Both the position numbers and the translations under genes were made by a program. A stretch of DNA of 64,000 nucleotides from Candidatus Eiseniibacteriota bacterium (GTDB lineage Bacteria; Eisenbacteria; RBG-16-71-46; JAFGJU01): NCBI GenBank assembly GCA_020349905.1, contig CP070702.1:2230936-2294935 (forward strand). Direction: 5' to 3'. Under the pieces are notes generated by a model. That model was not told where the DNA came from. It ran no database searches and worked only from the letters and a program-made list of their open reading frames with translations. Shown one piece after another: positions 7,392 through 59,671 of the stretch (position 1 is its first letter; each line of letters starts with the position of its first letter).

Positions 7392-9110
7392 TTACCTCAG
7401 CAATACCATCTTCTTCGTCTCATTGTGCCCAGACGCTTCCAGCCGGTACAGATACACACCCGACGCAACAGCCCGTCCCGCATCGTCACGACCGTCCCAG
7501 GCAACCTCGTAACGCTGAGGTTTCCGCCAACCTTCAACAAGCGTGCGGATGGCGCGGCCCTCAATGTCAAGAATGCTTAGCACGACCCTCCCCGGCTCGG
7601 GCAATGAGAATCGAATCGTTGTTAGCGGATTGAATGGGTTCGGGCAGTTCTGTTCCAGCGCTGATACTGCGGCCGGCCGCTGGACTGTCTCCCCGACACC
7701 CACAAAACTCCCATCAGCTTCAATACGCTGTGCATAGACGTTGTATGGATTGGCCCCTCGAGTATCCCGCCAAACGATCATAGCTCCTCCCGCTCCATCG
7801 GAGGTCAACCTCGGCTCCTCCTGCTGTCCCGCCGCAGTGCAGATGGCCTGGCCGTTTACTTCCCACAGTCGGACCCCTGACGCGTCCCTGCGCTGGGCGT
7901 AAATGTCCGAATTGTCCCCGCTGCGGTAGTCCTGCCACGTGATTATCGCACCCCCCTCACTGTCCCGGATGATTCTAGGAAGGTTCTGCGAGACCGGGGC
8001 TGCAGAGATCACCACACCTCCGGGCGTCCACAGGTGTGATCCCGCCGCATCAACTCGTTGAGCGTAGATGTTCAACTCATCCGTGGGGCCCGTGTAATAC
8101 GATACCCATGTGACAAATGCACCACCTGAGCCGTCAGGGACGAGCCTTGGTTCGAAAAGTCTGCAGCATGCTGAAGCTATAGGGATTCCGCTGGGACCCC
8201 ACGTGGTATCGCCTGACGCATCTACATGCTGACCGTGTATGGCGGTACTCGAGTAACCGGTCTCCTGTTTCCACACGATTATCGCGCCGCCAGCACCGTC
8301 CGATGCAATTCTGGGACTCCAGTTGTCGTCCGCGAGATTCGAAAGATAAACGCCGTTAGGGATCCAGAGGAGGTTTCCGTCCCCGTCCACGCGCTGGGTG
8401 TAGGCGTGAAAGTTCCCGCCGTTACGCATATCTTCCCAGGTAATGACAGCGCCGCCAAAGTCATCCGGGGCAATATCGATGCACTGTTGGTCAAACGCCG
8501 CGTTACAGATTACCACGCCATTTGTGGTCCACAGCGGAGTGCCGGAGCCGTTCACTCGCTGAGCGTAAACGTCTTCGTCGCTACCGCGCCCGTCACCCCA
8601 CACAATGATTGCGCCGCCCGCATCATCCGAGACTAGCTGCGGAGAGAACTGATTCCCCGGGGCCATGCATACAGCCACACCGTCCACACCCCACAACAGA
8701 TTCGCTGAGCCGTCTATTCGCTGGGCATGTATGTCACCCGGCCTTTCCCACACCACGATCGCACCACCCGAGCCGTCCGACACAATTTCGAGTCCACCGA
8801 GGCCCCATATATCAACAGATCCGGAGATCTTGACTCCGCACGATGCCCACAACTCGTTCCCGTCCGCATCCACGCGTTGTGCATAGACCTTGGTCCCACT
8901 TCGCTCATCCTTCCAGGCAATGATCGCGCCGCCAGCACCATCAAACGCGATGACGGGAGCGTACTGCCAGCCGCCTGCTATACAGATGGGATTTCCGCTG
9001 TCTTGCCAGATGGCGATCGCAGAGGCAGGGAACGTCAGCGCGAGAGCAAAAAGCAACATTGCAGTTCCCTTGTAAGTCTTGACTCTCTCCACAATCTCAC
9101 CCCTTGGCAT
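7392..9110 (-). CDS. secreted beta-propeller-like repeat protein with T9SS C-terminal sorting domain
   Basis: Signal peptide (likely start MLLFALALTFPASAIA at 9059). About 8-9 tandem repeats of a roughly 48-aa unit (SDGAGGAIIVW.D.R.G..VYAQRVD..G..LW). C-terminal roughly 85 aa has NCPNPFNPLTTIRFSL...KKMVLLR, the T9SS type-A sorting domain. Confidence 0.7.
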   Translation of the reverse strand: MPRGEIVERVKTYKGTAMLLFALALTFPASAIAIWQDSGNPICIAGGWQYAPVIAFDGAGGAIIAWKDERSGTKVYAQRVDADGNELWASCGVKISGSVDIWGLGGLEIVSDGSGGAIVVWERPGDIHAQRIDGSANLLWGVDGVAVCMAPGNQFSPQLVSDDAGGAIIVWGDGRGSDEDVYAQRVNGSGTPLWTTNGVVICNAAFDQQCIDIAPDDFGGAVITWEDMRNGGNFHAYTQRVDGDGNLLWIPNGVYLSNLADDNWSPRIASDGAGGAIIVWKQETGYSSTAIHGQHVDASGDTTWGPSGIPIASACCRLFEPRLVPDGSGGAFVTWVSYYTGPTDELNIYAQRVDAAGSHLWTPGGVVISAAPVSQNLPRIIRDSEGGAIITWQDYRSGDNSDIYAQRRDASGVRLWEVNGQAICTAAGQQEEPRLTSDGAGGAMIVWRDTRGANPYNVYAQRIEADGSFVGVGETVQRPAAVSALEQNCPNPFNPLTTIRFSLPEPGRVVLSILDIEGRAIRTLVEGWRKPQRYEVAWDGRDDAGRAVASGVYLYRLEASGHNETKKMVLLR

Positions 9111-9407: not shown

Positions 9408-10952
9408 CTACTTCAGCAAGACCATCTTCTTTGATTCTTTGTAGCCAGGCCCCTCAAGCTGATAGAAGTACACGCCTGAAGCGACTGCTTTGCCGGAGTC
9501 GTCCCGACCGTCCCATGCAACGTCGTAGTGTTGAGCCTCCCGCCAGCCCTCCAACAACGTGCGAACTGGTCTACCAAAAACATCATATACCCGTAGCTCA
9601 ACTAAACCAGGCACGGCAACAGAGAATGTGATATGTGTCAGAGGATTGAACGGATTAGGATAGTTCTGCTTCAGCGCGAATGGCGCGGACATCGGACCTT
9701 GCTCGTCAACCGCAATTACCATGCCAGGGAAGAACTCCACACTCAAGCTGGCATAGTTACTGGCGATCCCACTACCTGCCGTCTCCACATAGTTCTCGCA
9801 AACCCCATAGAACGTATGAGACCCGGCCGCGATGTTATAAGCCTGCGTATGCGAGAAGGAGTTGAATTCCAGATCCGCGCTCACGGCTTCCACTCCGACG
9901 TTGCCGTCGTTGGATTCCCAGTCTCTCTTGTCGCTGGCGGCCACGATGATTCGGTCGCCCACATCAGAGACACATAGGCCTTCATATCTGACGATTGCCG
10001 TCCCCAGCTCCGTTGGACTGATTATCAGGGAGTCCATGACTACCGGCGCACCTCTCACGTAAACATTCGTCTGCGATACTCCGGTATGTTGTACGAAGGC
10101 GTCACCTGCCGACGTTGGAAAGAACTCCACGGTCAGGCTCCCGTAAAACGACGCAATACCGTCCCCGTCCGTCTCCACGATGTTCTCAGCAACGGCGTAG
10201 AAGTCATGCGAACCAGGCCCGATCGAATACATGCGCGAGTGGGAGAACGGCGTAGTGTCGAGATCGCTGTCGATGGCCTCGACCGCGGTGCAGCCATCGT
10301 TGCCGCTCCAGCTGGTTGTGTTGCTGGCGGCGAGAATGATGCGGTCACCCGGAGTTGACACGCACACCCCGTCGAACCGCACGAGAGCGTTACCGGAGAC
10401 ACCGACCGTTATGTTCCTCTGGGCGATCAGGGTGCTCGCCCCACGGACATCTTCGTAATCGACAACGATCCCCGTATGGGATACGAGAGGTACGTCCACC
10501 CCGTCCGGGAAGAACTTGACTACCAGGCTTCCATAGACGGAGGCAATACCTGACCCAGCCGTCTCTACAAAGTTCTCCCCGACAGCGTAGAAAGTGTGAG
10601 TCCCGGCGCTTACCGGATATACCCGGGTGTGTGAAAAGGACCTGATGTTTATATCGCTGTCATATGCCTCCATTTCAGTGTGGCCGTCGTTTGAGTACCA
10701 AAGGGGCGTTTTGCTAGCGGCGAGAATAATACGATCGCCGGGAGAGGACCAGCACTGGCCATCAAACTGGACGACGACGTTGCCGGCCTCAGCAACAGTT
10801 ATGATCTGCTGGGCTAATACAACCGGAGCCCCGCGCATGTTGACATTATCTCGTATGACTCTGCGATGCCAGACTCCGACGTCAGCAGAACAGGGTGCGT
10901 ATGCGACGAGGCATACAAACAGGCACGCGATGCCTATCACTGCGGTTCTCAT
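9408..10952 (-). CDS. secreted protein with three internal roughly 125-aa repeats and T9SS C-terminal sorting domain
   Basis: Signal peptide MRTAVIGIACLFVCLVAYAPCSA. Three copies of a domain (VRGAPVV...GN.VV.FDG.C.S.PGDRIILAAS......NDG...EA..SD.....FSHT..Y....G.H.FYAV.EN.VET.G.GIAS.YGSL.V.FFP). C-terminus is QNYPNPFNPLTHITFS...KKMVLLK. Confidence 0.7.
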   Translation of the reverse strand: MRTAVIGIACLFVCLVAYAPCSADVGVWHRRVIRDNVNMRGAPVVLAQQIITVAEAGNVVVQFDGQCWSSPGDRIILAASKTPLWYSNDGHTEMEAYDSDINIRSFSHTRVYPVSAGTHTFYAVGENFVETAGSGIASVYGSLVVKFFPDGVDVPLVSHTGIVVDYEDVRGASTLIAQRNITVGVSGNALVRFDGVCVSTPGDRIILAASNTTSWSGNDGCTAVEAIDSDLDTTPFSHSRMYSIGPGSHDFYAVAENIVETDGDGIASFYGSLTVEFFPTSAGDAFVQHTGVSQTNVYVRGAPVVMDSLIISPTELGTAIVRYEGLCVSDVGDRIIVAASDKRDWESNDGNVGVEAVSADLEFNSFSHTQAYNIAAGSHTFYGVCENYVETAGSGIASNYASLSVEFFPGMVIAVDEQGPMSAPFALKQNYPNPFNPLTHITFSVAVPGLVELRVYDVFGRPVRTLLEGWREAQHYDVAWDGRDDSGKAVASGVYFYQLEGPGYKESKKMVLLK

Positions 10953-22369: not shown

Positions 22370-25249
22370 CTAATCCAGCGGTTCCCGCCTCACGAGCTTC
22401 ATGACCCTTTCAGCAAGGTATGGAGCGTCAGCGTCGTCCGGATTGATCGCGAGTGCTTTCTCATACTCCCCGAGCTCCTCGCGCAGCCGCCCGGTGATGT
22501 GAAAGAGATGACCCGCCATCACGTGGGTCGTGGCCCTGTAGTAGCGCTCGAGACTCTCCCTGGTTGCGGCCTGCTCCTCCGGCGATGCGCCCAGGTTGAC
22601 GACCAGGCCCTCGGGGAACCGTCTCGCCCTTGCTATCTCCGAGAGGTTCATCCACTCGCCGCGCTCCCGGATCATGTTCCGCGGCGCCCTGAACTCGACC
22701 AGCGGTCTGTCCTCTGTGTTCAGCAACCCCTCACCCACCATATCCTCGATGCCGCTGCCGTGGACGGCCAGGCAGTCCGCGATTGCCAGAGGATCGTTCA
22801 TCCTGACCGAAGCCAGATCAGCGTTCAGTCCCTCGTTCTCCAGCGCAAGACGTACTCTCTCAAGGTCGAGGCGAATGGGCTTCATACTGCCCATCGCCAC
22901 GCTGTATGCCTCGACCGTGTTGTTCATGTACCAGATGATCACGTGCGGAAATGCCGCTTCCAGCGTCCTCACGATCATCTTGTATTCCTCATCCGACAGG
23001 AAATACGTGGGCAACCAGAACGAGAGGATGCCGTCCTCGGTGAGCCGGCTCTTGCAGAGCTCGAAGTACTCCTTGGTATAGAGGCTACCGTTCCCTACGT
23101 AGCGCGGGTGAATCGAGTCTGAGAGGATGATGTCGTATCGCTCGTCAGTCGCCATGACGAAGTTCCTGGCATCCTCGATGACCAGGGAGACTCTCGGATC
23201 GCTGAGAACGTTTTGATTCATGTCCTGAAAGTACAGCGTCGCTGCCCTGATTACCGAGGGAGAGATTTCGACGCAATCGATGCGCTCGATGCTGGGATGG
23301 AGACTGATGGACCAGCAGGTCCCTCCGCTTCCGAAGCCGATCTGCATAACCTTCTTCGGGTCCGGATGCGAAAGAAGCGGAAAGTGAGCCTGCATCTTCT
23401 GTGTCACCAGGAAGCCGAACTTTGTTCCCGCCACGTTTAATCCGTTTATGTCCAGTACCCTGTGACCGCTTTGCGCCTGGTGCACGGTCACGGTCCCGCT
23501 GGCACTTTCGTTCACGTATATGAGTGCCATCCTCTTCTCGGCCGTGGCGTACATGTCGACGAAGACTTCCCGAGGGATGAGAGCGAAGGCGATGAGGACG
23601 GAGGCTGTGCCAGCAATTAGGGAACCAAGCTTCAGAGTCGCGCCCAGGTCACGGCCTTCCACAGACCTTGCCGTCTTGCCGGCCCGTACCGCCTTGCCCC
23701 CCCGTTTCCCGTGGCCCTTCCGTTTGGGCTTACTCCTTACGGTGCCTGCGGCGCCGTCGGGAGACGGGACGGGCGCGAACCACAAAATTACGATTCCGAC
23801 CGCCACGCTTACTGAACCTGTCGAGATGGCGGAAATCCTAACGCCCAGCGCCTCGACCAGGATGAAACTCGCGAGAAATGAACCTGCGATCGCACCGAGC
23901 GTGTTGATGCCGTAAACGTCACCCACACCGCGCCCCACGCGCGCCATGGCCCTCGAGTAAATCTTGGCAGCCAGCGGAAAGCTCGCCCCCATGAGAAAAG
24001 TGGGAACCAGAAGTATCACGAACGCAGCGCCCATCTTCCACATCGTGAATTGCCACCACGGGTCCGGCGTGTCGAGCGAAGTGCCGACTCCGCTCAGACT
24101 GCGCAGGAAAGATTCCCTGAACCCTATCAGCGGGGCAAAGAGAGGAATCAGAATGAGGACAACGATGCCGATGGAAAACTGAAACAGGCCGAAGAGACGA
24201 AGCCCGACACCCGGTCGGTCAAGGTATCTAGAGATGATGGCACTTCCGAGGGTGATTCCGAAAAGGAAACTCATCAGCACGAGGCTAAACGAGTGAACGA
24301 AGTTTCCGAGCACGTACACCATGATGCGCGTCCAGAGTACCTCGTTCGAGAGAGCCGCGAGCCCAGCCACTCCGGCACCCAGGAGGATGAGACGGGCCTC
24401 TCCGGGTAACGCTGCACCTGGGACCTGTACGGCCTTCTCTGCCGCTCCGACTTCCGATTCGCTACGCTGTGACCCGCTGCCCTTGCTGGAGCCTTGCACG
24501 GACGCAGGTGCGGAGGCAGGTGCGGCGACCCTTTCGCCTTCGACAGTCGCAGGTTCGATGGCCGCAATCCGCATTCCAACGGCTATTGCAATGAGCCCTA
24601 CCACTGTATTTATGAGGGCCGCAATGATGGAGGTCGTACGCATCCCCAGGAGTTCGATGAGGAAGAAGCCTGCCGCAAATGTACCCACCACCGCCCCGAA
24701 AGTATTCACAGCGTAAAGAGAGCCAACGGCTGACCCAAGACGCGGGAGCTTCCGCACGGCGAACTTCACGACCACAGGAAGAGTGGCTCCCATGAGCGTC
24801 GTGGGCAGAATGAGCGCCATCGTACAGAGGGCGAACCTGAGGAGCGTGAACGTGAAGAAGGAGGCCGAGAACTTCTGGAACGCAACAACGTGGACGGCGG
24901 TGACACCCTGCAAGATGGTCGGAAAGAAGACCGCGAAGAGCCCTATCACCAATTCCAGAACACCGTAGAGAACGAGAGGTGACATCCTACCGCGGTCCAC
25001 GTATCGTCCGAAGAGGAAGCTTCCGAGCGCAAGCCCGGCCATGAAGGCAGTCACGACGGCACCCATGGCGTAGACCGTGGCTCCGAACGTGGCGACAAGC
25101 ATCCTCGTCCAGACCACCTGGTAGACGAGCGCGCTAGCGCCCGAGAAAAAGAGAAGAACAAGAAGAAGCCAGCGTCTGGACCAGTCGGAGCGACCGGCGC
25201 CACCCTTTGGGTTACTCCGGCCAGCGGGTTTGCGGGAGTCTGTATTCAT
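22370..25249 (-). CDS. fused MFS-like membrane domain / spermidine synthase-like aminopropyltransferase with C-terminal TPR
   Basis: Two 6-TM blocks flank a Lys/Arg-rich loop. The C-terminal soluble domain with GFGSGGT...VEISP..IR.A...F......DPR..L...DAR...Y...D is the spermine/spermidine synthase fold. TPR-like repeats follow. ATG at 25249 gives a clean start; the six-frame ORF extends to 25315. Confidence 0.65.
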   Translation of the reverse strand: MNTDSRKPAGRSNPKGGAGRSDWSRRWLLLVLLFFSGASALVYQVVWTRMLVATFGATVYAMGAVVTAFMAGLALGSFLFGRYVDRGRMSPLVLYGVLELVIGLFAVFFPTILQGVTAVHVVAFQKFSASFFTFTLLRFALCTMALILPTTLMGATLPVVVKFAVRKLPRLGSAVGSLYAVNTFGAVVGTFAAGFFLIELLGMRTTSIIAALINTVVGLIAIAVGMRIAAIEPATVEGERVAAPASAPASVQGSSKGSGSQRSESEVGAAEKAVQVPGAALPGEARLILLGAGVAGLAALSNEVLWTRIMVYVLGNFVHSFSLVLMSFLFGITLGSAIISRYLDRPGVGLRLFGLFQFSIGIVVLILIPLFAPLIGFRESFLRSLSGVGTSLDTPDPWWQFTMWKMGAAFVILLVPTFLMGASFPLAAKIYSRAMARVGRGVGDVYGINTLGAIAGSFLASFILVEALGVRISAISTGSVSVAVGIVILWFAPVPSPDGAAGTVRSKPKRKGHGKRGGKAVRAGKTARSVEGRDLGATLKLGSLIAGTASVLIAFALIPREVFVDMYATAEKRMALIYVNESASGTVTVHQAQSGHRVLDINGLNVAGTKFGFLVTQKMQAHFPLLSHPDPKKVMQIGFGSGGTCWSISLHPSIERIDCVEISPSVIRAATLYFQDMNQNVLSDPRVSLVIEDARNFVMATDERYDIILSDSIHPRYVGNGSLYTKEYFELCKSRLTEDGILSFWLPTYFLSDEEYKMIVRTLEAAFPHVIIWYMNNTVEAYSVAMGSMKPIRLDLERVRLALENEGLNADLASVRMNDPLAIADCLAVHGSGIEDMVGEGLLNTEDRPLVEFRAPRNMIRERGEWMNLSEIARARRFPEGLVVNLGASPEEQAATRESLERYYRATTHVMAGHLFHITGRLREELGEYEKALAINPDDADAPYLAERVMKLVRREPLD

Positions 25250-25327
25250 GTTTGGACCGTCTCCTGTCTGACTCTTCGAACGATGGCCGATTCTAACTAA
25301 CGCCAATCCTCCCAACCCTACCCCGAG

Positions 25328-25661: not shown

Positions 25662-28343
25662 GTGAAGTATTTGCGAACGTTGGCTCTGTGTCTCGCCGTC
25701 ACGTGTGTGGCGACCGCTCCTCTCCTTCTCTCCTCCCTGACCGAGGCCCGCACACCCATCAGAAACGCCTTCTTCAACGTCTACCCTTCTGCCGAAGGCA
25801 CCCGCCTGGACGACCTGGCCAGCAGCCCGACTCACTGCGGGGTGTGCCACTTCGACTTCGACGGAGGCGGGCCCAGGAACCCGTATGGGATTGCAGTGGA
25901 GGTGGCTCGCAACTCCGGAATGTACTCCACGGACGAAGAGGTCATTGCCGCCATAGAAGGCGAGGACTCTGACAACGACGGTTTCTCCAGCCTGATAGAG
26001 ATTACCGACACCGTCAACTTCGACAACACCCCCACCTTTCCAGGACTGAATCAGAACAACATTAGCAGCGTCGTTAATGTGAGCGTTATCGAGATAAATA
26101 CTCATCTCACACCTACTGGCGGCGTTGACACGACCCCTCCCGCAGTTGTAGTGCTCTCTCCGAACGGCGCGGAAAGCTTCGATGCAAGCACCGTCAGAAA
26201 CGTCACCTGGTCTGCGTCCGACGCGAGTGGCATCTCCCACGTGAACATCTACCTTTCTGATGACAACGGCCTCACCTACATGCCGATAGCCAAGGGTAGG
26301 CCCAACGACCAGCCTTTTAGCTGGCACGTGCATAACCTGCCCGGTACGCAGAACCTGATTCGCGTCGTGGCAAAGGACAACGCGGGCAACAGCGGCTTCG
26401 ACGATAGTGACAGTCCTTTCACCATCATCCGCTATCCATTCGGCAGGGTGCCATCGACGCTGCGAGACGTAAGACTTTCCGGGACCCAGCCCTTAGAAGG
26501 CGGAATACTTGAAGACCCGGACGTGAGCTGCATAACCTGCCACGGCAACTACGACGTCGTTGCTGAACCCTGGCACAGCTGGAGAGGCAGCCCGATGGGC
26601 CAGGCAGCAAGGGACCCTCTGTTTCTGGCGTGCCTGGTGACTGCCGAGCAGGCCGCTCCCTCTGTGGGAGACCAGTGCCTTCGCTGTCACACCCCGGGAG
26701 GATGGCAGGAGGGACGCGCCGTCGACACGTTCGGGAACATGATAAACGCCAAGGATCGCCAGGGCGTGCAGTGCGACTTCTGCCACCGTGCCGTGGACCC
26801 TGACTACAAGCTAGGCATAAGTCCCCTGGAGGACGTCGCCGTACTCGACTCCCTGGACGCCATCCCCATGGACTACGCGAACGGCCAGTTCGTCACGGAC
26901 CCCAATCCGTTCAGACGCGGGCCCTTCTTTGACGCAGAGTCCAGCCACGGCTTCCTGGAGTCTCCGTTCCATCGCAAGTCAGAGATGTGCGGCACGTGCC
27001 ACGACGTCAGTAATCCCGTGTACGTGAGGGGTGCGACGCCTGACGAATACGTTCCGAACGCTTTCGATTCTCCGCACCCGGACGGGGATCAAGCCAACAT
27101 GTTCCCGCTTGAACGTACGTTCAGCGAATGGTCCATGAGCGAATATGCTTCCACGGGCGTTTTTGCACCTCAGTTTGCTGGGAACAAGCCGGACGGCATA
27201 GTGTCTACCTGCCAGGACTGCCACATGTCGGACGTTAACGCAAGGGGAGCCAGTGTACCGGGTACTCCGACGCGTCCGGACCTGCCGCTTCACGACTTCA
27301 CGGGAGGCAACTACTTCATCGCCGACATCCTGCCCAGCTTCTACCCCGGAGAGGTCGATTCGCTGAGACTGCTCGACGCCAAACTGAGAGCTATCGCCAT
27401 GCTTCAGAAGGCCGCGAGCATTTCGCTCATAGCGGGAGACGAGCCTCCTCATCTCAAGTTGACCGTGGTCGTGGTGAACGAGACGGGCCACAAGCTGCCC
27501 ACCGGCTATCCGGAAGGCAGGCGCATGTGGCTGAATGTTAAGGTCTACGACGACGAATCTAATCTAGTCTACGAATCTGGTGCCTACGACGAGGAAACTG
27601 CTCTTCTGGGGGACGACCCGGATATCAAGGTCTATCAGATAAAGCCGGGTATTTCTCGCCGGATATCCCCTGTTGTCAGCATCCCGTTCGGGCCGTCGTT
27701 CAATTTTGTCATGAACGACACGCTATTCTCGGACAACCGGATTCCGCCGAGAGGTTTCACCAACGCCAACTTCGAGGCCATACAGTCCCAGCCTATCGCA
27801 TACAGCTATGCAGACGGCCAATTCTCGGACACGACGACGTACCTGGTGCCTCCCACTGCGGTCTTCGCCGAGGTGAAGTTGTACTATCAGACAACGACCA
27901 GGGAATACATCGAGTGGCTGAGAGACCACAACGCCACAAACAGCATGGGACAGGACCTGTTGGACGCCTGGGCCAGGGAGGGAAAGTGCGCTCCGGTAGC
28001 AATGGCGACCGACACGATAAGCCTGCAGCTTCCGGTAGATGTTCCGATCAGAGAGGCCCCCGGCTTCCGCAACGCGCTGTTCCAGAACACACCCAACCCG
28101 TTTAATCCACTTACGAACATCGCCTATTCTCTTGAGTCGGCGGGACGAGTCAGCATCAGGGTCTACGACGTGAGGGGAAGTCTCGTCCGCACTCTGGTGG
28201 ACGCTGTGAAGCAGGCAGGGATGCACGAGGCCCTCTGGGATGGCCGCAGCGACGCGGGTGGGGCCGTCTCATCAGGCGTCTACGTGGTCAGGATGAACGT
28301 GAACGGCTACGAAGCGGTCCGCAAGGCCGTGCTCCTCAAGTGA
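25662..28343 (+). CDS. secreted multiheme (six CxxCH) c-type cytochrome with T9SS C-terminal sorting domain
   Basis: GTG start with GGAGGGAGG RBS. Signal peptide. Heme motifs CGVCH, CITCH, CLRCH, CDFCH, CGTCH, CQDCH. C-terminal 85 aa NTPNPFNPLTNIAYSL...RKAVLLK is homologous to the sorting domains of the two cargo proteins at 7392-10952. Confidence 0.8.
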   Translation: MKYLRTLALCLAVTCVATAPLLLSSLTEARTPIRNAFFNVYPSAEGTRLDDLASSPTHCGVCHFDFDGGGPRNPYGIAVEVARNSGMYSTDEEVIAAIEGEDSDNDGFSSLIEITDTVNFDNTPTFPGLNQNNISSVVNVSVIEINTHLTPTGGVDTTPPAVVVLSPNGAESFDASTVRNVTWSASDASGISHVNIYLSDDNGLTYMPIAKGRPNDQPFSWHVHNLPGTQNLIRVVAKDNAGNSGFDDSDSPFTIIRYPFGRVPSTLRDVRLSGTQPLEGGILEDPDVSCITCHGNYDVVAEPWHSWRGSPMGQAARDPLFLACLVTAEQAAPSVGDQCLRCHTPGGWQEGRAVDTFGNMINAKDRQGVQCDFCHRAVDPDYKLGISPLEDVAVLDSLDAIPMDYANGQFVTDPNPFRRGPFFDAESSHGFLESPFHRKSEMCGTCHDVSNPVYVRGATPDEYVPNAFDSPHPDGDQANMFPLERTFSEWSMSEYASTGVFAPQFAGNKPDGIVSTCQDCHMSDVNARGASVPGTPTRPDLPLHDFTGGNYFIADILPSFYPGEVDSLRLLDAKLRAIAMLQKAASISLIAGDEPPHLKLTVVVVNETGHKLPTGYPEGRRMWLNVKVYDDESNLVYESGAYDEETALLGDDPDIKVYQIKPGISRRISPVVSIPFGPSFNFVMNDTLFSDNRIPPRGFTNANFEAIQSQPIAYSYADGQFSDTTTYLVPPTAVFAEVKLYYQTTTREYIEWLRDHNATNSMGQDLLDAWAREGKCAPVAMATDTISLQLPVDVPIREAPGFRNALFQNTPNPFNPLTNIAYSLESAGRVSIRVYDVRGSLVRTLVDAVKQAGMHEALWDGRSDAGGAVSSGVYVVRMNVNGYEAVRKAVLLK

Positions 28344-28586: not shown

Positions 28587-28615
28587 TTGACGCGATGGGC
28601 GGTTTGTGATATAAT
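28587..28615 (+). promoter_or_regulatory. near-consensus sigma70-type promoter (TTGACG-17-TGaTATAAT) upstream of the Cys-rich protein operon
   Basis: Same architecture and flanks (GTGxTATAATAAA) as the promoter at 25477-25505. About 140-nt leader to ATG 28755. Confidence 0.5.
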
Positions 28616-28754
28616 AAACCGGTAATTTCTATAGAAAGATCACCTTCATAACATACCAGACGACAGTTGCACTACCCGAGAGGGGAGCCCGCGATTCCCC
28701 GGACTCCTCGCCCTATTACTATCCCTTCGAGGGTGAGAAAGGGGGTGATTTGGT

Positions 28755-29525
28755 ATGAAGAAGGCTATGGGAATTCTCCTCGGCCTGATGTGCGTTGCGT
28801 TCCTCGTGAGCCTCCTCGTTACACCTCAACCCAGGATTCAGCACAGAGGCTCTTCCGCCTTCGACGTGGCCCTAGAGCGGGCCGTTGACAGATTGGAAGG
28901 CACCGGCAGGTTCGTCCTTGCCGGAACGGCCACCCCTGTCGACGCACAGCTGCAGCCCACGTTCGATGGCAGATACACCTGCGATACGTATGAGGCGGCG
29001 ATGACCACGTGTGACCCGGCGCAGCCAGGATGCCTAACACACACAGCCGACCCAATGGGTCACACATGCGTGGCGGGTGAGTACACGTGCCAGGTGGCAA
29101 CGTGCGACACCTACGACAGGCAGCAGTATACGTGCGATCCCGCCAACGCAGACTGTCCCACTGCTACTCACACGTCTGAACCGTCGCCCTACAATCACAC
29201 TTGCGAAGGCCACACCTGTGACGGTGCCTTCACCTGTGATTTTACGGTTGACCCGCGTGCTTGGACCTGCGATGCGGCTGACGTCGACTGCCAGGACGTG
29301 ACGTTTAATGCGTTTATCTCAACGTGTGACCCGATGAAACCGGAGTGCCGCGAGAGCAATCCAGACCACTGTACCGCAGAAGGTTACTTCACGTGTATCG
29401 TGACAGAGGTAACCTGCGACCCGCTCGATCCCAACTGTCCGACCATCGATCCGAGACCGGGTTGCGCCACTGCGACAGAGCACACGACCTGGGGACAGCT
29501 CAAGACCCTACACATGAGGGAGTAG
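28755..29525 (+). CDS. secreted cysteine-rich repeat protein (about 25 Cys; repeated [YF]TC[DQ]x7-9TCDPxxPxC units)
   Basis: RBS GGGGGTGA. Signal peptide MKKAMGILLGLMCVAFLVSLLV. The mature part is dominated by 'TCD' tripeptides arranged in 4-5 degenerate repeats. No recognisable catalytic motif. Confidence 0.7.
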   Translation: MKKAMGILLGLMCVAFLVSLLVTPQPRIQHRGSSAFDVALERAVDRLEGTGRFVLAGTATPVDAQLQPTFDGRYTCDTYEAAMTTCDPAQPGCLTHTADPMGHTCVAGEYTCQVATCDTYDRQQYTCDPANADCPTATHTSEPSPYNHTCEGHTCDGAFTCDFTVDPRAWTCDAADVDCQDVTFNAFISTCDPMKPECRESNPDHCTAEGYFTCIVTEVTCDPLDPNCPTIDPRPGCATATEHTTWGQLKTLHMRE

Positions 29526-29672
29526 GACTCCCCGGGCAACGGCCAGAATTCGGGGGAGAAACCCCAGCTGTTTCTTCCCCGGATTTTTTTATTCCTGCCG
29601 CACGCATGAAGGGGTGTGGTAATATCGAAGCGCTCGTCTGGAGAGCGCGTCGCTGTTCGCTCAAGGTGACCA

Positions 29673-32099
29673 ATGAGAATGTGGACCCGAAACATCTCGT
29701 TTCTCTTTCTCGTCGGCGCCTCAACGAGGTCTCTCGGTCTACTGAGTGGTGACCTCTACGAGATACTCTCTTTCTTAGGCTTCCTGGTCTTCGCCTCCAC
29801 GTTTCGCCTGGGCCTGCTGAACGCCGGCGACGGGGGTCTCTTCCGGCTCATCTCAGCATTTTTTCTCGCAGGGGCAGGCATAGCCCTGTTCAGGTGGGGG
29901 GAGACAGGACTCCTTCCGCTGTATGTTTTTCTGTCAATATCGCTTCTGCTGCTTTTTTGGCGGAGAGAGTCTGAGGACGTCAGGCACCTGGAAAGCTACG
30001 TCCTGGCTCTGGCGTGCGTTGCGTTCCTAGGCGGGTTGGTGCGACTGCTTCCGGTTCTCTGGCACGCAGAGACAGACCTGGCTTCTCTCTTATCGTGGAC
30101 GGCGGAGAAGCTTGCCGAGGAAGACCGGGCCCTGGGGGCCACGACCATGGCGATGCCTCTTCTGGCGGCACTCTTGTTCCTCCTGTTCGTGCGGGAGGCG
30201 GCAGCTGAGAGCCGCCGCCATTCCCGGTGGATAGCCGGGGCCTTGGTTCTGGTGGCCGTCCACGTCTTCTACCTGGTCTTCCTGAAATACTACGCCCGCT
30301 GGATAACCTCTCACCGCCCGACTTGGGACTGGTTGATTCTCAATTCCCAGCACCTGTTTCTGATTCTGGGGAGCGTCGCCTTCACACTCATTGACAGAGG
30401 CAGGACAGTACGCTCCTTGATGCCCGCGTACTTCTGGCGAGCCGGCTACGTCTCAGCGGCCTTGTTTGTGGTGGCAGTGGTTGTTGCGCTGGCGCTGGCC
30501 TGGGCTCCGGCCCCCACGCACCGGCCGTACTGTGTGATGGTGTACGACGCCGGGTATCTCAACTGGAAGATTCCCGTCCACGGCACGTACGGAGAGCGTA
30601 GCGCGGGCATGTTCGGGATGTTTCCGTCGGCGCTGGAGGCCGCAGGTCTGGACGTCATCGCCTCGAATGACCTGACGCTTCTGGATTCACCGGCGGCGCC
30701 GGACTGCGTCGTAATGATAAACATCCAGGAGTATCTCGAGGAGGAGGAGAGGGAGAGGATCTGGAAGTTTGTCTCCGAGGGCGGGGGCCTGCTCTGCCTG
30801 GGTGACCACACCGGTGTGGCGGGCATCAGGGGTCCGTTTAACGACCTGCTCGAACCGGTGGGCATCCGGTTTCGATTCGACAGCTCCACGTTCTTCGGAC
30901 AGGGGTGGAACGAGGCTCTGGACTTCCGCCCGCACCCGCTCAACCGGGGCGTAGAGACGGCCGAAGATTTCCAGATATGGGTCGGCGCAACGCTAGACCT
31001 GGACATTGCTGCACGTCCCGTCGTAATCGGCCGCTACGGGTATTCCGACATAGGCGACGCCGCCAACATCGAGCGCTCCTATCTCGGCGACCGCAGGTAC
31101 AATCCCAACGAGCTTCTGGGTGACGTGGTGCTCGTGGCCGACGCTCGCTTCGGCAAGGGCAAGGTCCTGGTGTTCGGGGACACATCGGGCTACCAGAATC
31201 TCTCCCTTGTGCGCACTCTGGATTCGGTCGTCCGGTCGCTGGACTACTTGAGCGCCGGCGAGAGGTTCGGCCCCGGCGCTCTTGCGCAGGTCGGCTTACT
31301 TGTGTTGCTCCTTCTTCTCGTCACCGCTGGAGCCGCGTACGTCAAGAACCCCCTGCCCATCATCGCGGCGGCCCTGGGGGTGATTGTAGGGTCGGCGCTG
31401 TGTCAACTTGCTACACCCACGCCCAAACAGCTGACTCCGGCCTTCCTGGATGAGAGCCCCGAGTTCTCCTTCTCTCCAACGCCCCACGTCAAGAGGGAAC
31501 TCGCCGTGATGGACGTTTCTCACGGTGGTCACCACACGTTGCGGGGCTGGAAGGACAAGAGCATAGGCGGGCTTCAATTGAACCTGGCGCGGAACGGATA
31601 CTTCCCGTTGCTCAGGCCCGAGTTTCCTTACCAGGACCTCGAACGCGGGGCGGCTCTGCTTGTCATCATGGCTCCGACCCGCGTTTACAGCGAGAGAGAG
31701 ATAGATGCAATCGAGAAGTTTCTGAGAAGCGGCGGAAGGGTGATAATAAGTGTGGGCTTCGAGGAGCTTCGCGCCTCCGAAGGACTTCTCAACCGTTTCG
31801 GCCTCAGCGTGGCGAACGTGCCGCTGGGGCGACTCGAGGTCGCCTCCGAGGGCGACAGTCCCGGGATTCTGTTCCGGGAGGGATGGCCGGTTCTCTTCGA
31901 CAGCGGCGCTCCGGTGGAGGTCATGGTGTCTGAGTGGAACTACCCGCTCGTCGTGAGGAAGCCTGTCGGGGCGGGCAACATAATTCTCATCGGGGACAGC
32001 TCCTTTTTCCACGACGCGAATCTTGAAACGCGTGAACACTATTTCGAGGGGAACGTGGCGTTCTTCAGGCGACTCATCGAGCTTGGAAAAACGAAATGA
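29673..32099 (+). CDS. large polytopic membrane protein (about 9 N-terminal TM helices plus 2 internal TM helices) carrying two GldG/GATase1-like extracytoplasmic domains; paralog A
   Basis: Hydrophobicity pattern. Two soluble domains with motifs CVVMINIQEYL...FVSEGGGLLCLGDHTG and LLVIMAPTRVYSEREIDAIEKFLRSGGRVIISVG...NIILIGDSSFFHD. These resemble the GldG / 'ABC-type uncharacterized transport system' family pattern (VLVIAGP..FS..E...L..FV..GG.L). Paralogous to the next gene. Confidence 0.6.
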   Translation: MRMWTRNISFLFLVGASTRSLGLLSGDLYEILSFLGFLVFASTFRLGLLNAGDGGLFRLISAFFLAGAGIALFRWGETGLLPLYVFLSISLLLLFWRRESEDVRHLESYVLALACVAFLGGLVRLLPVLWHAETDLASLLSWTAEKLAEEDRALGATTMAMPLLAALLFLLFVREAAAESRRHSRWIAGALVLVAVHVFYLVFLKYYARWITSHRPTWDWLILNSQHLFLILGSVAFTLIDRGRTVRSLMPAYFWRAGYVSAALFVVAVVVALALAWAPAPTHRPYCVMVYDAGYLNWKIPVHGTYGERSAGMFGMFPSALEAAGLDVIASNDLTLLDSPAAPDCVVMINIQEYLEEEERERIWKFVSEGGGLLCLGDHTGVAGIRGPFNDLLEPVGIRFRFDSSTFFGQGWNEALDFRPHPLNRGVETAEDFQIWVGATLDLDIAARPVVIGRYGYSDIGDAANIERSYLGDRRYNPNELLGDVVLVADARFGKGKVLVFGDTSGYQNLSLVRTLDSVVRSLDYLSAGERFGPGALAQVGLLVLLLLLVTAGAAYVKNPLPIIAAALGVIVGSALCQLATPTPKQLTPAFLDESPEFSFSPTPHVKRELAVMDVSHGGHHTLRGWKDKSIGGLQLNLARNGYFPLLRPEFPYQDLERGAALLVIMAPTRVYSEREIDAIEKFLRSGGRVIISVGFEELRASEGLLNRFGLSVANVPLGRLEVASEGDSPGILFREGWPVLFDSGAPVEVMVSEWNYPLVVRKPVGAGNIILIGDSSFFHDANLETREHYFEGNVAFFRRLIELGKTK

Positions 32100-34714
32100 C
32101 CGCAGTCTGGATTGGCATACTCGTTCTGGCGTTCTCGTGGCTCAAAGCGCTTCCTCTATTTGAAGACGCCGGCGGCTCTTTGCCGTGGTTTCTGGTCGGA
32201 GTGCTCCTGGTAGTCTTCGGGCTTCGCAATCAGAACTTCTGGCAAGACGGACCGCGAAAGGGTCCTGCGGTGGCCGTTCTCGTTTCCTCCATGGTGGCGA
32301 TTGCCTGGCTGGGTGATCCTTTCCGGACGGGATTCCTTCTGCTGGCACTGGCTGCCCTTCTCACGCTGCTTCCTGTGCCGCGCGCAGCTGCACGGTGGGC
32401 CCTGCCGGGATTATGGTTCTCCGGAATGGTGTGCGTACTGCAGGCGGCGTGCGTCCCTCTTCTTTACTCGTTCTGCGCCCGTTATCACCAGACCGCCGAG
32501 CTGCCGTTCCTGCACGACCTGGTGTCCGGATTTCCGTCCTTCCCGTGGCTGGCGACATTGCTCTACGTCCCCCTCAAGATACTGAATCCCGACACGGCCC
32601 TTGGCGGGGCTACTCTGTATATGCCCGCCAGCGTGGACGTGATAGCGTTGACTCCCACCTGGGAGAAGCTGGGCCTCATCCCGGCCGTTCTCTTTGGGGC
32701 CGGCGCCGCTCCGCTCCTGCTCCTTCGCCCCGACTGGCGCAGGCGGTTGGGTGGGCTGCTGTTCTGGACGGCCCTCTTCCTGTACGTACGTCTTGTGCTC
32801 CTCTTCCTGCTGGTCGCCCACACGAGAAACGAGCGCGCCTTCTGGCTCTTTGACTTCGTCTTCCTGAGCTTCTTTCCGCTCGCCCTTTTGCTCGCGGCCT
32901 GGTGGCATCGGGGCTCTTCGGCTCCTGAGTCGCCTGAGCCCTCGGAGGTCGGGCCTCTCAGGTCGGGCAGGAAACGCTTCCTGGCCTGGCTGGCGGGTCC
33001 CGAGGAGAGCGAGAGTCATTTTGACGCGAGGCTCAGAACGGCACGTGTGCTCGTCGCGACGTTTCTCTTCGCAGGCGGGCTCACTGCGTTCTGGGGATTT
33101 CACGACGCGGGGATTCCGAAGGCCGGCCGCATTCTCATCGACGAAGGCCACAGCGACTGGGAGTGGACGACCGAACCCTTCGACACTCTCACGTACGGGG
33201 GAAAGTCTGGCTACAACTACTACTGTCTTGCCGATTACTGGAATCACTTCTACAGCGTGGAGACCCGAAGAGACAGCTTGACGTCCGAACTTCTGGCAGG
33301 TTGGGACGTCCTAGTCATAAAGACGCCCACGTCGGCTTTCTCGAAACAAGAAGTAGACGCCATCGAGGGTTTTGTCCGGCAGGGGGGCGGACTCTTTCTC
33401 ATAGGTGACCACACCAACGTATTCGGAACCAGTACGTATCTCAATGCTATCGCCGAACGGTTCGGAATGTACTTCAGATACGACGCCACCTACACCCTGG
33501 CCTCGCTCGGCCTCAGTCTCTTCGAGCGCCCGCATCGGTTTGCTCATCCGGTGATTCGTTTCATGCCCGATTACCTGTTTGCCACCTCGTGCACGATGTA
33601 TTCCCCTCCCCTGTCGGAGAACGTCATCCTTGGATACGGGCTTCGGGCCATGTACCTGGACTACTCGGAGGTGAGCTACTTTCCGACCAAGCAAGAGAAG
33701 TGGGACTACGATTTCGGGCTCTTCGTCCAGGCCGGAGGCGTGAGATTCGGCAAGGGCAGAGTCCTGGGTTTCACCGACAGCACCTGTTTTTCGAACTTCT
33801 TCATGTTCATGCCGGGAAAGCCAGAGCTGGCTCTGGCGTCCCTGGAATGGCTGAACAGAACGAACAGATGGTCGTGGCGCTACAGAATTTTCCTCCTCAC
33901 TTCACTTATCGGACTCGTGCTGCTCGTCATCGAGGCGCGTCGCAACACGGGCCTGTCCTTCTGGCAGGGAGTGATCGTATCGGGTACGTTGACGGTCGTA
34001 GTCCTTGGAGCCATCACCGAATCGCAGGTCGCCCGTTCCTACGCTCTGCCGCAGCCGCACCGTCCCCCGATCTACATCACCTTTGACCACGAACACGGGA
34101 ACTACCTGATCCCCGCCGAGACTCTGCCCGTCTCCAACTGGCAGAACTTCCAGACGTTCTACGTCTGGACCCAGCGCATGGGACTCGTTCCCAGAGACGA
34201 GAGCTCCCTGGAGGGAGCGGTCCGGAACAGCCGCGCTCTCGTGGAGATTCACCCCTACCGTTCCTTCTCCATCGAGGAGATAGACCTTGTCGTAGATTTC
34301 GTGCGGCGGGGAGGAACGCTCGTCGTGCTGGATTCCCCCGACAACTTCCGCAGTTCTGCGAAAACGCTCCTGGGGCCCTTCAGCGTATACTTTGACGGGG
34401 AGGTGGCTGATTCCCTGGCCGTGCTCGACGCTCAGGGCGACACCCTGGGAGTGCCGCGACGGGCCGTCGGTGTTAGAGGCGTGGCTCCCCTTCTTACGCT
34501 GGGTGACGGCCGGACTGTCATGGGCTACCGGCCCTTCGGAAAAGGTAGGGTCGTCGCGTGTGGGGCGTCGTACCTCTTCTGCTCGGAGTCCATGGGAAAC
34601 ACAGCCGTCGTACCGAACGCCCGGCAGAGGCGCGTCTTCAGGGCAGAGTACGACGTCTTTGAGAAGGTGGCCGGCCTGCGTGTGCGGGGACGTTACTACC
34701 TTCCTGACGAATAG
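32096..34714 (+). CDS. paralog B of the preceding membrane protein (same N-terminal TM module plus two GldG/GATase1-like domains)
   Basis: Start ATG overlaps the previous stop (ATGA at 32096-32099), indicating translational coupling. Domain motifs DVLVIKTPTSAFSKQEVDAIEGFVRQGGGLFLIGDHTNVFG and LVEIHPYRSFSIEEIDLVVDFVRRGGTLVVLDSPDNF are collinear with paralog A. Confidence 0.6.
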   Translation: MTAVWIGILVLAFSWLKALPLFEDAGGSLPWFLVGVLLVVFGLRNQNFWQDGPRKGPAVAVLVSSMVAIAWLGDPFRTGFLLLALAALLTLLPVPRAAARWALPGLWFSGMVCVLQAACVPLLYSFCARYHQTAELPFLHDLVSGFPSFPWLATLLYVPLKILNPDTALGGATLYMPASVDVIALTPTWEKLGLIPAVLFGAGAAPLLLLRPDWRRRLGGLLFWTALFLYVRLVLLFLLVAHTRNERAFWLFDFVFLSFFPLALLLAAWWHRGSSAPESPEPSEVGPLRSGRKRFLAWLAGPEESESHFDARLRTARVLVATFLFAGGLTAFWGFHDAGIPKAGRILIDEGHSDWEWTTEPFDTLTYGGKSGYNYYCLADYWNHFYSVETRRDSLTSELLAGWDVLVIKTPTSAFSKQEVDAIEGFVRQGGGLFLIGDHTNVFGTSTYLNAIAERFGMYFRYDATYTLASLGLSLFERPHRFAHPVIRFMPDYLFATSCTMYSPPLSENVILGYGLRAMYLDYSEVSYFPTKQEKWDYDFGLFVQAGGVRFGKGRVLGFTDSTCFSNFFMFMPGKPELALASLEWLNRTNRWSWRYRIFLLTSLIGLVLLVIEARRNTGLSFWQGVIVSGTLTVVVLGAITESQVARSYALPQPHRPPIYITFDHEHGNYLIPAETLPVSNWQNFQTFYVWTQRMGLVPRDESSLEGAVRNSRALVEIHPYRSFSIEEIDLVVDFVRRGGTLVVLDSPDNFRSSAKTLLGPFSVYFDGEVADSLAVLDAQGDTLGVPRRAVGVRGVAPLLTLGDGRTVMGYRPFGKGRVVACGASYLFCSESMGNTAVVPNARQRRVFRAEYDVFEKVAGLRVRGRYYLPDE

Positions 34715-34742
34715 CGGAGAGAGATGCCGCAGGGTTACACAG

Positions 34743-34862
34743 ACACGAGGGGATGGTTCGGATGCCACCTGGAACAAAGACACGCAGGGGTGCTCGGATG
34801 CCCCCAGGACACGGACACGCAGGGGTGCTCGGACGCCCCCAGGACACGGACACGCAGGGGTG
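34743..34862. repeat. tandem direct repeat, about 3.4 copies of a 35-bp unit (GACACGCAGGGGTGCTCGGATGCCCCCAGGACACG)
   Basis: Two near-perfect copies at 34779-34813 and 34814-34848. A truncated third copy and a degenerate leading copy flank them. It sits in the 150-nt gap between membrane protein B and the next gene. Confidence 0.75.
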
Positions 34863-34867
34863 ACCAG

Positions 34868-35674
34868 ATGTTGCGTATGAAACTGATGGCGAGCATTCTC
34901 GCAACGCTCGTGGCTCTTGCGGGCGCCCCGGGCGATGGGAGGACCGGCCGCGTTGGTGAAACTCCGTCTGCTGCGGCCGCGGGTACCGATTCGGGGCGCG
35001 TGAACTACAGCCCGCCGTTCGACCCGAAGGATTTCGTTGAGCACGTCGACAATCCCTACTTTCCCCTCACGCCAGGAACGACGCGCCTGTATGCCTTGAG
35101 GACCGAAGAAGACCTCGGGGCAGTTGAGGAGTTTGTCACCTTTGACACGAAGACCATCCTGGGCGTCAAGACCACAGTGGTGCTCAGCAAAGAGATGATG
35201 GGAGGGGCTCTCGTCGAACAGACCTCGGACTGGTATGCACAGGACAAGCACGGCAACGTATGGTACTTCGGCGAGTACTCCGAGCATTACAGGGACGGAG
35301 AATTTCTTGGCACTCGCGGCTCATGGGAGGCGGGCAAGGACGACGTGCAACCCGGAATCATCATGCCCGCCAATCCCAGAATACGAATGACCTACAGGCA
35401 GGAATGCCGCATCGGCGAGGCAGAAGACTTTGCAGAGGTGCTGAGTCGTTCGAAGCGGGTCTCCGTGCCGTACGGGACCTTCGAGAAGTGCCTTCAGACG
35501 GCTGAGTGGACCCCGCTAGAACCCGGAGGCAGGGAGTTCAAGTACTACGCGCCCGGCGTAGGACTCGTCCTGGAAGTCGAACCCGGGGACAACGAAACCC
35601 GCCTCGAGCTGGCGGCCGTGTCGCCCCCGGGTGGAATGATCGAGGTCGACAGCTTGACGAAGAAAGCCCGCTAG
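34868..35674 (+). CDS. secreted protein of unknown function
   Basis: Signal peptide MLRMKLMASILATLVALAGAPG after a GGGGTGA SD. The six-frame ORF starts further upstream at 34724 but that extension is the repeat array. No recognisable motifs. Confidence 0.55.
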   Translation: MLRMKLMASILATLVALAGAPGDGRTGRVGETPSAAAAGTDSGRVNYSPPFDPKDFVEHVDNPYFPLTPGTTRLYALRTEEDLGAVEEFVTFDTKTILGVKTTVVLSKEMMGGALVEQTSDWYAQDKHGNVWYFGEYSEHYRDGEFLGTRGSWEAGKDDVQPGIIMPANPRIRMTYRQECRIGEAEDFAEVLSRSKRVSVPYGTFEKCLQTAEWTPLEPGGREFKYYAPGVGLVLEVEPGDNETRLELAAVSPPGGMIEVDSLTKKAR

Positions 35675-59305: not shown

Positions 59306-59361
59306 CTCACGACGATATGTTCACGCGTGCGAAGAACCGCCTGCCTGCGGTCACTCCACAC

Positions 59362-59667
59362 CTACCACTTCATCACGTTCATCTCGTCCACGTCGGTGGT
59401 CTCGCGGGCCCTGAAGGCGATCAGCACTATGGCGAGCCCCACCGCGACCTCTGCGGCAGCCACCGTCATCACGAACAGAACGACTATTTGCCCTCCCACT
59501 GCCCCGCTCGCCCTGGAGAAAGTCACGAAGGCCAGGTTGGCAGCGTTCAGCATGAGCTCGATGGACATGAGGACCACCAGGATGTTCCTCCTGAGAAGGA
59601 CCCCCGCCACGCCCACCGCGAATATCACCGCGCTCACTGCAAGATAATGGCTCACGCCTACGGGCAT
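59362..59667 (-). CDS. nuoK: NADH-quinone oxidoreductase subunit K
   Basis: 101 aa, 3 TM, with NuoK-typical conserved Glu residues in TM2/TM3. Confidence 0.8.
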   Translation of the reverse strand: MPVGVSHYLAVSAVIFAVGVAGVLLRRNILVVLMSIELMLNAANLAFVTFSRASGAVGGQIVVLFVMTVAAAEVAVGLAIVLIAFRARETTDVDEMNVMKW

Positions 59668-59671
59668 CGGT

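Follow-up and report, generated by a model that had tools for sequence, protein, structure and literature searches.

The 64,000-nucleotide stretch of Candidatus Eiseniibacteriota contig CP070702.1 analyzed here (hereafter the window) carries on its forward strand, at positions 28755..29525 (stop codon included), an ATG-initiated open reading frame (ORF) encoding a protein of 256 amino acids. Our analysis supports the view that this product is an extracytoplasmic cysteine-rich protein built from diverged T-C-D-type units and, judged on its sequence, it belongs to no described family. The gene lies directly before two paralogous membrane protein genes, and together they probably represent an undescribed cell-envelope module of poorly studied bacteria. 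The interpretation that we favor, tentatively, is that of a modular envelope repeat protein, anchored at its N-terminus and braced by disulfides, which is docked through its two conserved ends to a heteromeric platform of DUF4350/GIFT membrane proteins or is handled by that platform. The ORF product is 100% identical to the NCBI hypothetical protein JSW03_09740 (Candidatus Eiseniibacteriota metagenome-assembled genome (MAG), 2.69-Mb contig), and its family is labelled 'hypothetical protein' wherever a source names it. The ratio of nonsynonymous to synonymous substitution rates (dN/dS) between orthologues is 0.06-0.22 with saturated dS, and the ORF is a genuine gene under purifying selection. 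Tandem Repeats Finder detected no DNA-level tandem repeat around the gene, indicating that the repeats of the protein are old, and an Rfam scan of the gene region gave no match.

Threonine and cysteine are associated in the sequence far beyond chance. The TC dipeptide occurs 13 times against 3.35 expected, a number reached by none of 100,000 composition-preserving shuffles (p<1e-5), and TC[DQNE] occurs 11 times against 0.77 expected (0/100,000 shuffles as high). The best non-overlapping self-alignment of the protein scores 106 compared with 40 +/- 7 for shuffled sequences (z=9). An initial annotation, made from the sequence alone, had proposed a secreted protein built from such repeats, and the three units that it quoted are all present verbatim: YTCDTYEAAMTTCDPAQPGC at residues 74-93, YTCQVATCDTYDRQQYTCDPANADCPT at residues 110-136 and FTCIVTEVTCDPLDPNCPTIDPRPGC at residues 212-237. 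Its counts need correction, since the protein has 21 cysteines in total, 20 of them after the N-terminal hydrophobic helix, instead of about 25, and 10 TC[DQ] motifs (9 TCD and 1 TCQ) instead of nine. The pattern extends to the family: an alignment of 33 homologues has 33 invariant columns, of which 12 are Cys and 12 are Thr, and across the family Thr precedes 66-75% of the cysteines whereas Asp follows 34-41% of them and Thr only 5-8%. The features that are most telling on function, namely a conserved N-terminal helix, a C-terminal TTWGxIKxxY motif, the variable length of the core and the linkage to DUF4350/GldG-like genes, had been missed.

Alignments revealed four parts common to the whole family. 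The first is an N-terminal transmembrane (TM) helix, which in the window protein comprises the 19 hydrophobic residues 4-22 (28764..28820, forward strand; Kyte-Doolittle score 2.68) and is modelled by AlphaFold2 (AF2) as a helix at residues 2-22 with a predicted local distance difference test score (pLDDT) above 90. This helix agrees with the proposal that the protein is secreted, but neither a lipobox nor an AxA-type or other obvious signal peptidase site is visible at the N-terminus, so that the case for an uncleaved signal anchor is no weaker than that for secretion. Two further candidate classes of exported protein were rejected: a bacterial lipoprotein, as the [LVI][ASTVI][GAS]C lipobox is absent and Cys13 (context L-G-L-M-C, with I, L, V or M at position -1 across the family) sits in the middle of the hydrophobic helix, and a type IV pilin or pseudopilin, as the N-terminus MKKAMGILLGLMCVAFLV contains neither G-F-T-L-I-E nor a Glu. 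The second part is a juxtamembrane helix, SSAFDVALERAVDRLEG (residues 33-49; 28851..28901, forward strand), conserved in the whole broad family with the consensus SS[P]AFxxALxxAVxRLEG, in which S33, A35, L40 and L47 are invariant in 64 sequences; AF2 places a helix at residues 34-49/52 with a pLDDT of ~73-75. The third is the Thr-Cys-Asp-rich core (residues 69-237; 28959..29465, forward strand), which holds 20 Cys, five TCD[PA]x4C units and two super-repeats of ~70-80 residues, and has an isoelectric point of 4.05, 12.8% large hydrophobic residues and 11.6% Cys. The length of the core is very variable, from 13 to 38 Cys in database members up to 56 in one member identified through its locus (L025), and whole modules of ~80-110 residues are duplicated in the long forms. 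The fourth part is the C-terminal motif T-T-W-G-x-[ILV]-K-x-x-[YFH] (residues 244-253; 29484..29513, forward strand), a short amphipathic helix three residues before the stop codon. Its residues W246, G247 and K250 are invariant in 64 sequences, and the family-wide form T-[TS]-W-G-x-[ILV]-K-x-x-[YF] lies 1-4 residues from the stop codon in all homologous loci.

A six-frame translation of the 64-kb window contains a single copy of the C-terminal motif, and the literature search retrieved no paper mentioning a motif of the TTWGxIKxxY type. We rejected a role as a general sorting tag given this single copy and the fact that outside the family the motif was met only in a dubious short frame of locus L008 (6480-6506, reverse strand). 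That frame ends with QSWGSIKKRYYR immediately before a stop codon, has no start giving an ORF of at least 30 amino acids, and may be a chance occurrence or a gene remnant. The window protein is likewise not a type A cargo of the type IX secretion system (T9SS), as it lacks the Por_Secre_tail/FlgD_ig domain of ~75-80 amino acids and ends 3 residues past the WG motif. Two paralogues do carry this sorting domain: in P0041 it directly follows the WG motif, and in P0063 the family N-terminus is followed by Ig-like domains and then by the sorting domain (FlgD_ig scores of 36.2 and 32.7 bits, respectively). The sorting domains of P0041 and P0063 place the family outside the cytoplasm. Finally, a precursor of a ribosomally synthesized and post-translationally modified peptide (RiPP) or lanthipeptide and a substrate of formylglycine-generating enzyme (FGE; CxPxR) were discarded, the motifs being absent and no modifying enzymes being found as conserved neighbors.

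The initial annotation did not recognize the repeat type, and database searches bear this out. Pfam (E<=0.01) and NCBIfam (E<=0.1) scans of the protein returned 0 families, EGF-like, anaphylatoxin, TSP type 3, YTV and CxxC repeats included, so that homology to a named Cys-rich domain was looked for and not found. A Pfam scan of 64 family members at E<=1 gave no family matched by more than 2 members, and PDB sequence searches with a family profile and with a hexad-periodic relative gave no relative. The family is small by every measure: a single-sequence search recovers 37 clusters at 90% identity, a profile built from distant members recovers 78, only 33 of 1.84 billion representative proteins match at E<=0.001, and 185,579 species genomes contain 3 loci. 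The MAGs that host it are labelled Eisenbacteria, Latescibacterota or Gemmatimonadota at NCBI.

The first of the two downstream genes (JSW03_09745; 29673..32099, forward strand) encodes a protein of 808 amino acids, p808, in which ~8 TM segments are followed by a DUF4350/GIFT-like domain and, beyond a 2-TM hairpin, by another DUF4350 domain. The second (32096..34714, forward strand), whose start overlaps the p808 stop by 4 nucleotides, encodes p872, a paralogue of 872 amino acids with the same architecture and 24% identity to p808 over ~460 amino acids. In Pfam p808 matches DUF4350 (PF14258) at 63.3 bits (cut-off 30.4) and ABC_transp_aux (PF09822) at 43.6 bits (cut-off 34.7), and p872 matches ABC_transp_aux at 46.2, DUF4350 at 42.1 and IFT52_GIFT at 36.9 bits (cut-off 27.2); a weak match to the IFT52 GIFT domain was also obtained in the PDB (p872). 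The TM hairpin of p872 contains a basic loop, RRNT, which together with a published inference on DUF4350/GldG suggests that these domains may be periplasmic. The 8-TM domain of the partners gave no consistent Pfam match even at E<=10 (GT-C, O-antigen ligase or other). A DsbD/CcdA/DsbB-like thiol-disulfide transporter was considered and rejected: no TM Cys pair is conserved across 8 homologues, which argues against a DsbD/DsbB-like redox role.

To follow the gene order we ran tblastn over all fetched loci (L numbers). The order Cys-rich gene, p808, p872 was found in every locus of the close subfamily with enough downstream DNA, that is in the window and in L001, L002, L003, L005/L013, L006, L007, L011, L012, L016, L017, L018, L019, L021 and L023, and the genes on both outer flanks of the three-gene block vary between these loci. 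It is also kept where the Cys-rich protein has diverged to ~28% identity, in L025, where a 468-amino-acid member with 56 Cys precedes the pair, and in the P0070 locus, where three tandem genes with no Pfam match precede it, P0056 and P0070 among them being family members. The tandem copies of the Cys-rich gene in L011, L021 and the P0070 locus are likewise all found before the pair. Conservation of the three-gene order at unrelated flanks and down to ~28% identity supports a functional linkage to the membrane pair; the literature searched contains no description of this three-gene module. Tandem duplicates were located at L011 (1886-2653 and 3015-3788), L008 (7168-7989 and 8283-9257) and L021 (129-851 and 1056-1595), and the dN/dS of 0.49 between the two L011 copies, compared with 0.06-0.2 between orthologues, suggests relaxed or diversifying selection after duplication. 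Homologues of p808 are more widely distributed than the Cys-rich family, with at least 149 clusters, among them some from Phycisphaerae and Tectomicrobia MAGs. In one such locus, L026 of a Phycisphaerales MAG, the genes before the pair encode a TPR protein and a secreted protein of 1086 amino acids with 143 Cys (JAKSDK010000312.1, 1436-4696, forward strand), the latter two genes upstream of the pair, at nearly the same position as the window protein. It consists of a near-perfect heptad 'xPTxCPx' array (Cys autocorrelation of 85/65/50/45 at lags 7/14/21/28) behind a dockerin-like N-terminus, and its gene has its own terminator. No similarity between this protein and the window protein was found, its repeat has no Pfam relative, and a PDB search with it returned nothing relevant. 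Rhodanese-domain genes lie just 3' of the module at two unrelated loci, L005 (14724-15431) and L026 (12826-13203), which may point to a possible sulfur link or be a coincidence.

The Cys-rich gene is surrounded by expression signals of its own. A sigma-70-type promoter-like site, TTGACG-17 nucleotides-TATAAT with a TG extension (28587..28615, forward strand), matches the consensus at 11 of 12 positions ~140 nucleotides 5' of the start codon; this assignment is made by consensus match alone, and L002 has TTGAAA-17-(TG)TATAAT at the equivalent place. The Shine-Dalgarno sequence AAGGGGGTGA (28738..28748, forward strand) lies 6-7 nucleotides before the ATG, and a comparison of 8 homologous loci shows a single strongly conserved block upstream of the gene, the equivalent of this site, which reads AAGGAGGTGA in most of them. 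Between the Cys-rich gene and p808 is an intrinsic-terminator-like GC hairpin of 18 pairs followed by a T7 run (29545..29594, forward strand). A hairpin with a U-run is kept at this position in L001, L002, L005, L007, L011 (twice), L016, L017, L021, L023 and L026, with stem sequences that differ between loci, and L003 and L025 have a hairpin with no clean U-run. In L011 each of the two Cys-rich copies has its own terminator. Such a layout of promoter, Shine-Dalgarno site and terminator is what is expected of an abundant protein encoded ahead of less-expressed partner genes, and high expression of the Cys-rich gene can be predicted from these signals.

These data bear on the alternative that survives best, which we nevertheless consider unlikely, that the protein is a surface or secreted protein (for example an adhesin or surface-layer component) acting independently of its neighbors, the DUF4350 pair doing something unrelated and the synteny reflecting shared descent and a convenient insertion site. 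The terminator that separates the Cys-rich gene from p808 in nearly all loci would fit such independence, as would the paralogues located away from any DUF4350 pair, the T9SS-type sorting domain of P0041, which implies surface delivery, and the wider distribution of the p808 homologues. However, the three-gene block survives although both flanks differ at every locus examined, it persists to ~28% identity of the Cys-rich protein, and tandem duplicates of the Cys-rich gene remain before the pair. To this can be added that in a different phylum a dissimilar Cys-repeat protein is found two genes upstream of the pair. A broader proposal, which we also regard as improbable, is that the two membrane proteins might be the dedicated platform of a three-part envelope system that exports, oxidatively assembles or anchors disulfide-ladder proteins in both the Eisenbacteria lineage and Phycisphaerales, the former using Thr-Cys hexad/heptad repeats and the latter an unrelated-looking heptad PTxCP protein.

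The spacing of the cysteines is informative on how the core may be held together, for which both a disulfide ladder and metal binding had been proposed. The most frequent Cys-Cys gap is 7 in the close family and 6 in the distant family, and gaps of 1-3 residues make up 3/700 gaps in the close family (2, 0 and 1 for gaps of 1, 2 and 3) and 31/1126 in the distant family, the smallest gap in the window protein being 5. Close members mostly have 20 Cys, an even number, and indels take out Cys in sets of four. Moreover, the acidic core contains so few large hydrophobic residues that something other than a hydrophobic core must brace it. The near-absence of CxxC, CxC and CC together with the gaps of 6-7 favors structural disulfides over metal-thiolate clusters. 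The disulfide part of the earlier proposal therefore appears the better one, on grounds of Cys spacing and core composition, and metal binding the less favored. A thiol-based binder, that is a membrane-tethered analogue of a metallothionein or sulfur carrier whose reduced cysteines bind Cu, Zn, Cd, Hg, As or sulfur species together with His and Asp in the periplasm of an anaerobe, seems to us decidedly doubtful. Several observations would accommodate it: the Cys content of the core, the conserved H139 and H148 and the many Asp adjoining Cys, the varying Cys parity, the failure of AF2 to fold the apo sequence, the rhodanese genes near the module in L005 and L026, and a host lineage that is metagenomic and has multihaem cytochromes nearby. 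Against it, the CxxC, CxC and CC knuckles of metallothioneins, zinc ribbons and Fe-S proteins are essentially absent (minimum common spacing 5-7), the Thr before Cys exceeds every candidate ligand in conservation, the conserved neighbors include no metal transporter or resistance gene, and cysteines outside the cytoplasm are usually oxidized.

The Thr-Cys pattern also recalls the beetle TCT antifreeze proteins, and an ice-, mineral- or crystal-binding beta-solenoid with the Thr ladder as its functional surface was weighed as well. The frequency of Thr before Cys is in its favor, and so is the periodicity of the distant members, whose Cys autocorrelation is hexadic with lags 6/12/18 and matches the 12-residue C2-C8 repeat (PMC8038014). 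The window protein itself has a single autocorrelation peak at lag 7 (7 compared with ~2 expected) and no 12-residue series, Asp and not Thr follows the cysteines so that no TxT ladder is formed, no sequence similarity to any PDB chain, antifreeze structures such as 1EZG included, was found, and the membrane anchor and conserved termini have no antifreeze counterpart. Taken together these make the proposal very improbable. The last alternative, a chance ORF or low-complexity artefact encoding no real protein, has the unusual composition as its sole point in favor and is already refuted by the conservation pattern, namely 78 homologues with conserved ends, the low dN/dS with saturated dS, and a conserved strong Shine-Dalgarno site and terminator.

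We thus come back to the disulfide-braced, anchored repeat protein handled by the DUF4350/GIFT pair. Its gene would be built for high, monocistronic expression, as it combines a promoter-like site close to the consensus with a strong Shine-Dalgarno site and has a terminator of its own. The protein would be held in the inner membrane by its N-terminal helix, or released after Sec export, and its core would be held by about ten disulfides in C-x6-C-type loops. The core, variable in length, would act as a modular rigid spacer or scaffold, and specific contacts would most probably be made by the two conserved ends. The translationally coupled p808 and p872 would together make up a heteromeric platform in the membrane on which the repeat protein is bound, positioned or assembled.

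Several points weigh against this scheme. Cys parity is not conserved, with cores of 19, 21, 23, 15, 13, 29 and 31 Cys, and with odd numbers among them no fixed all-disulfide pattern can apply to the whole family; the conserved His and Asp beside Cys (HTC, TCD) could equally serve as ligands of a metal or of Ca2+. The mean pLDDT of the AF2 models is 46 with the 33-sequence alignment and 54.5 with the 64-sequence alignment, with most of the core below 60, and Foldseek searches of the PDB with these low-confidence models gave no match, so we make no claim about the fold. The positive-inside counts of p808 and p872 conflict and are ambiguous overall as to topology. The conserved terminator means that the three genes may not be one transcript. 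Not all family members lie beside a DUF4350 pair either: P0075 and P0071 (L014/L015) and the long form P0028 (L022/L024) do not, P0028 being followed by a convergent methyltransferase-like ORF. Lastly, the Phycisphaerales analogy comes from a single locus and is only a lead. In L014 (10468-12303) and L015 (11094-14056) P0075 and P0071 are followed by two paralogous lipoproteins of ~275-317 amino acids, with a GCGG lipobox and a core 'DLSIY.PAG...TWTTYLAIE.SLTVPAGTF', which belong to no Pfam family.

Outside the three-gene block the window contains the following genes of note. Upstream (25662-28343, forward strand) is a gene for an 893-amino-acid protein with several CxxCH haem motifs and weak matches to MtrC/MtrF, cytochrome c7, ExtKL and GEGP-dihaem families, which also has Ig-like domains and a FlgD_ig/Por_Secre_tail C-terminal sorting domain. 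It appears to be a multihaem cytochrome destined for the cell surface, and its gene is no conserved neighbor of the Cys-rich gene. Two further proteins (7392-9110 and 9408-10952, both reverse strand) have a C-terminal FlgD_ig as their sole Pfam match, and a T9SS-like sorting domain appears to be widely used in this organism. A gene at 22370-25315 (reverse strand) encodes a 981-amino-acid fusion of an MFS transporter and a spermidine synthase (NF037959 MFS_SpdSyn). Directly after p872, a 316-amino-acid ORF (34724-35674, forward strand) has no Pfam or NCBIfam match and is not conserved there in other loci. At the end of the window (54211-63990, reverse strand) lies a complex I/Mrp-type run with three Proton_antipo_M subunits and a Nqo3/NuoG-like molybdopterin subunit, an ordinary respiratory context.

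If the favored interpretation is right, this work adds a new Cys-rich repeat family, probably with a new fold that is at present beyond AlphaFold2, and an envelope component peculiar to candidate phyla of the FCB group (Eisenbacteria, Latescibacteria and Gemmatimonadota-labelled MAGs), organisms with uncharacterized cell surfaces. It would also provide a concrete partner for DUF4350/GldG-like membrane proteins, which are widespread and have no known molecular function and whose GIFT domain is common to the bacterial gliding protein GldG and the eukaryotic IFT52. Should the three-part system exist, the large DUF4350/GldG-like superfamily would gain its first function and a new protein fold would be defined. 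The family itself is narrow and comes from uncultured organisms.

Among systems already described, the membrane pair can be compared with arCOG01314, a predicted secretion or membrane-remodelling module made of DUF4350, vWA and MoxR AAA+ proteins (PMC5898192). In both cases membrane proteins are encoded beside secreted or envelope proteins, but neither the window nor any of the fetched loci has a vWA or COG0714 MoxR AAA+ gene next to the pair. The partners are not orthologues of GldG either: they score 16.9 bits against the TIGR03521 cut-off of 389.85, and no GldA, GldF or other ABC transporter genes are part of the module at any locus. The absence of ABC, vWA and MoxR neighbors indicates that the partners are not the described GldAFG or arCOG01314 modules, and their 8 TM-domain-2 TM-domain architecture as a paralogous pair also differs from the described GldG/arCOG01314 kind.

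With metallothioneins the Cys-rich protein shares a high Cys content, few aromatic and hydrophobic residues and no predicted fold in the ligand-free state. It differs from them in being extracytoplasmic and practically devoid of CxC, CxxC and CC, and in that the Thr context is conserved instead of Cys clusters. Cysteine-rich repeat proteins outside the cytoplasm are, as a general kind, already known. The chlamydial OmcA/OmcB and the Cys/Pro-rich YTV wall proteins of planctomycetes are abundant extracytoplasmic Cys-rich proteins thought to strengthen the envelope via disulfides. A parallel exists at L026, where the same membrane pair is tied to a 143-Cys protein. The window protein has no match to such families (compared by Pfam only), and its own family alone has the Thr-Cys-Asp signature, the N-terminal anchor and the WG motif at the C-terminus. 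The beetle antifreeze proteins TmAFP and DhbAFP, finally, form a beta-helix of 12-residue TCTxSxNCxxAx coils with one C2-C8 disulfide per coil (PMC8038014). They resemble the protein studied here in having Thr directly before most Cys, Cys 6-7 residues apart, no CxxC and a scant hydrophobic core, and the Cys lags of its distant relatives match their i/i+6 ladder (PMC8038014). Unlike them, it lacks the 12-residue regularity, has T-C-D instead of T-C-T and shows no detectable homology to them; it also comes from a bacterium, is anchored in the membrane, exceeds them 2-5 times in length, and has both dedicated gene partners and termini that are conserved but not part of the repeats. By analogy, the disulfide ladder of the beetle proteins may nonetheless be the most suitable structural template at hand for the folding of such a sequence.

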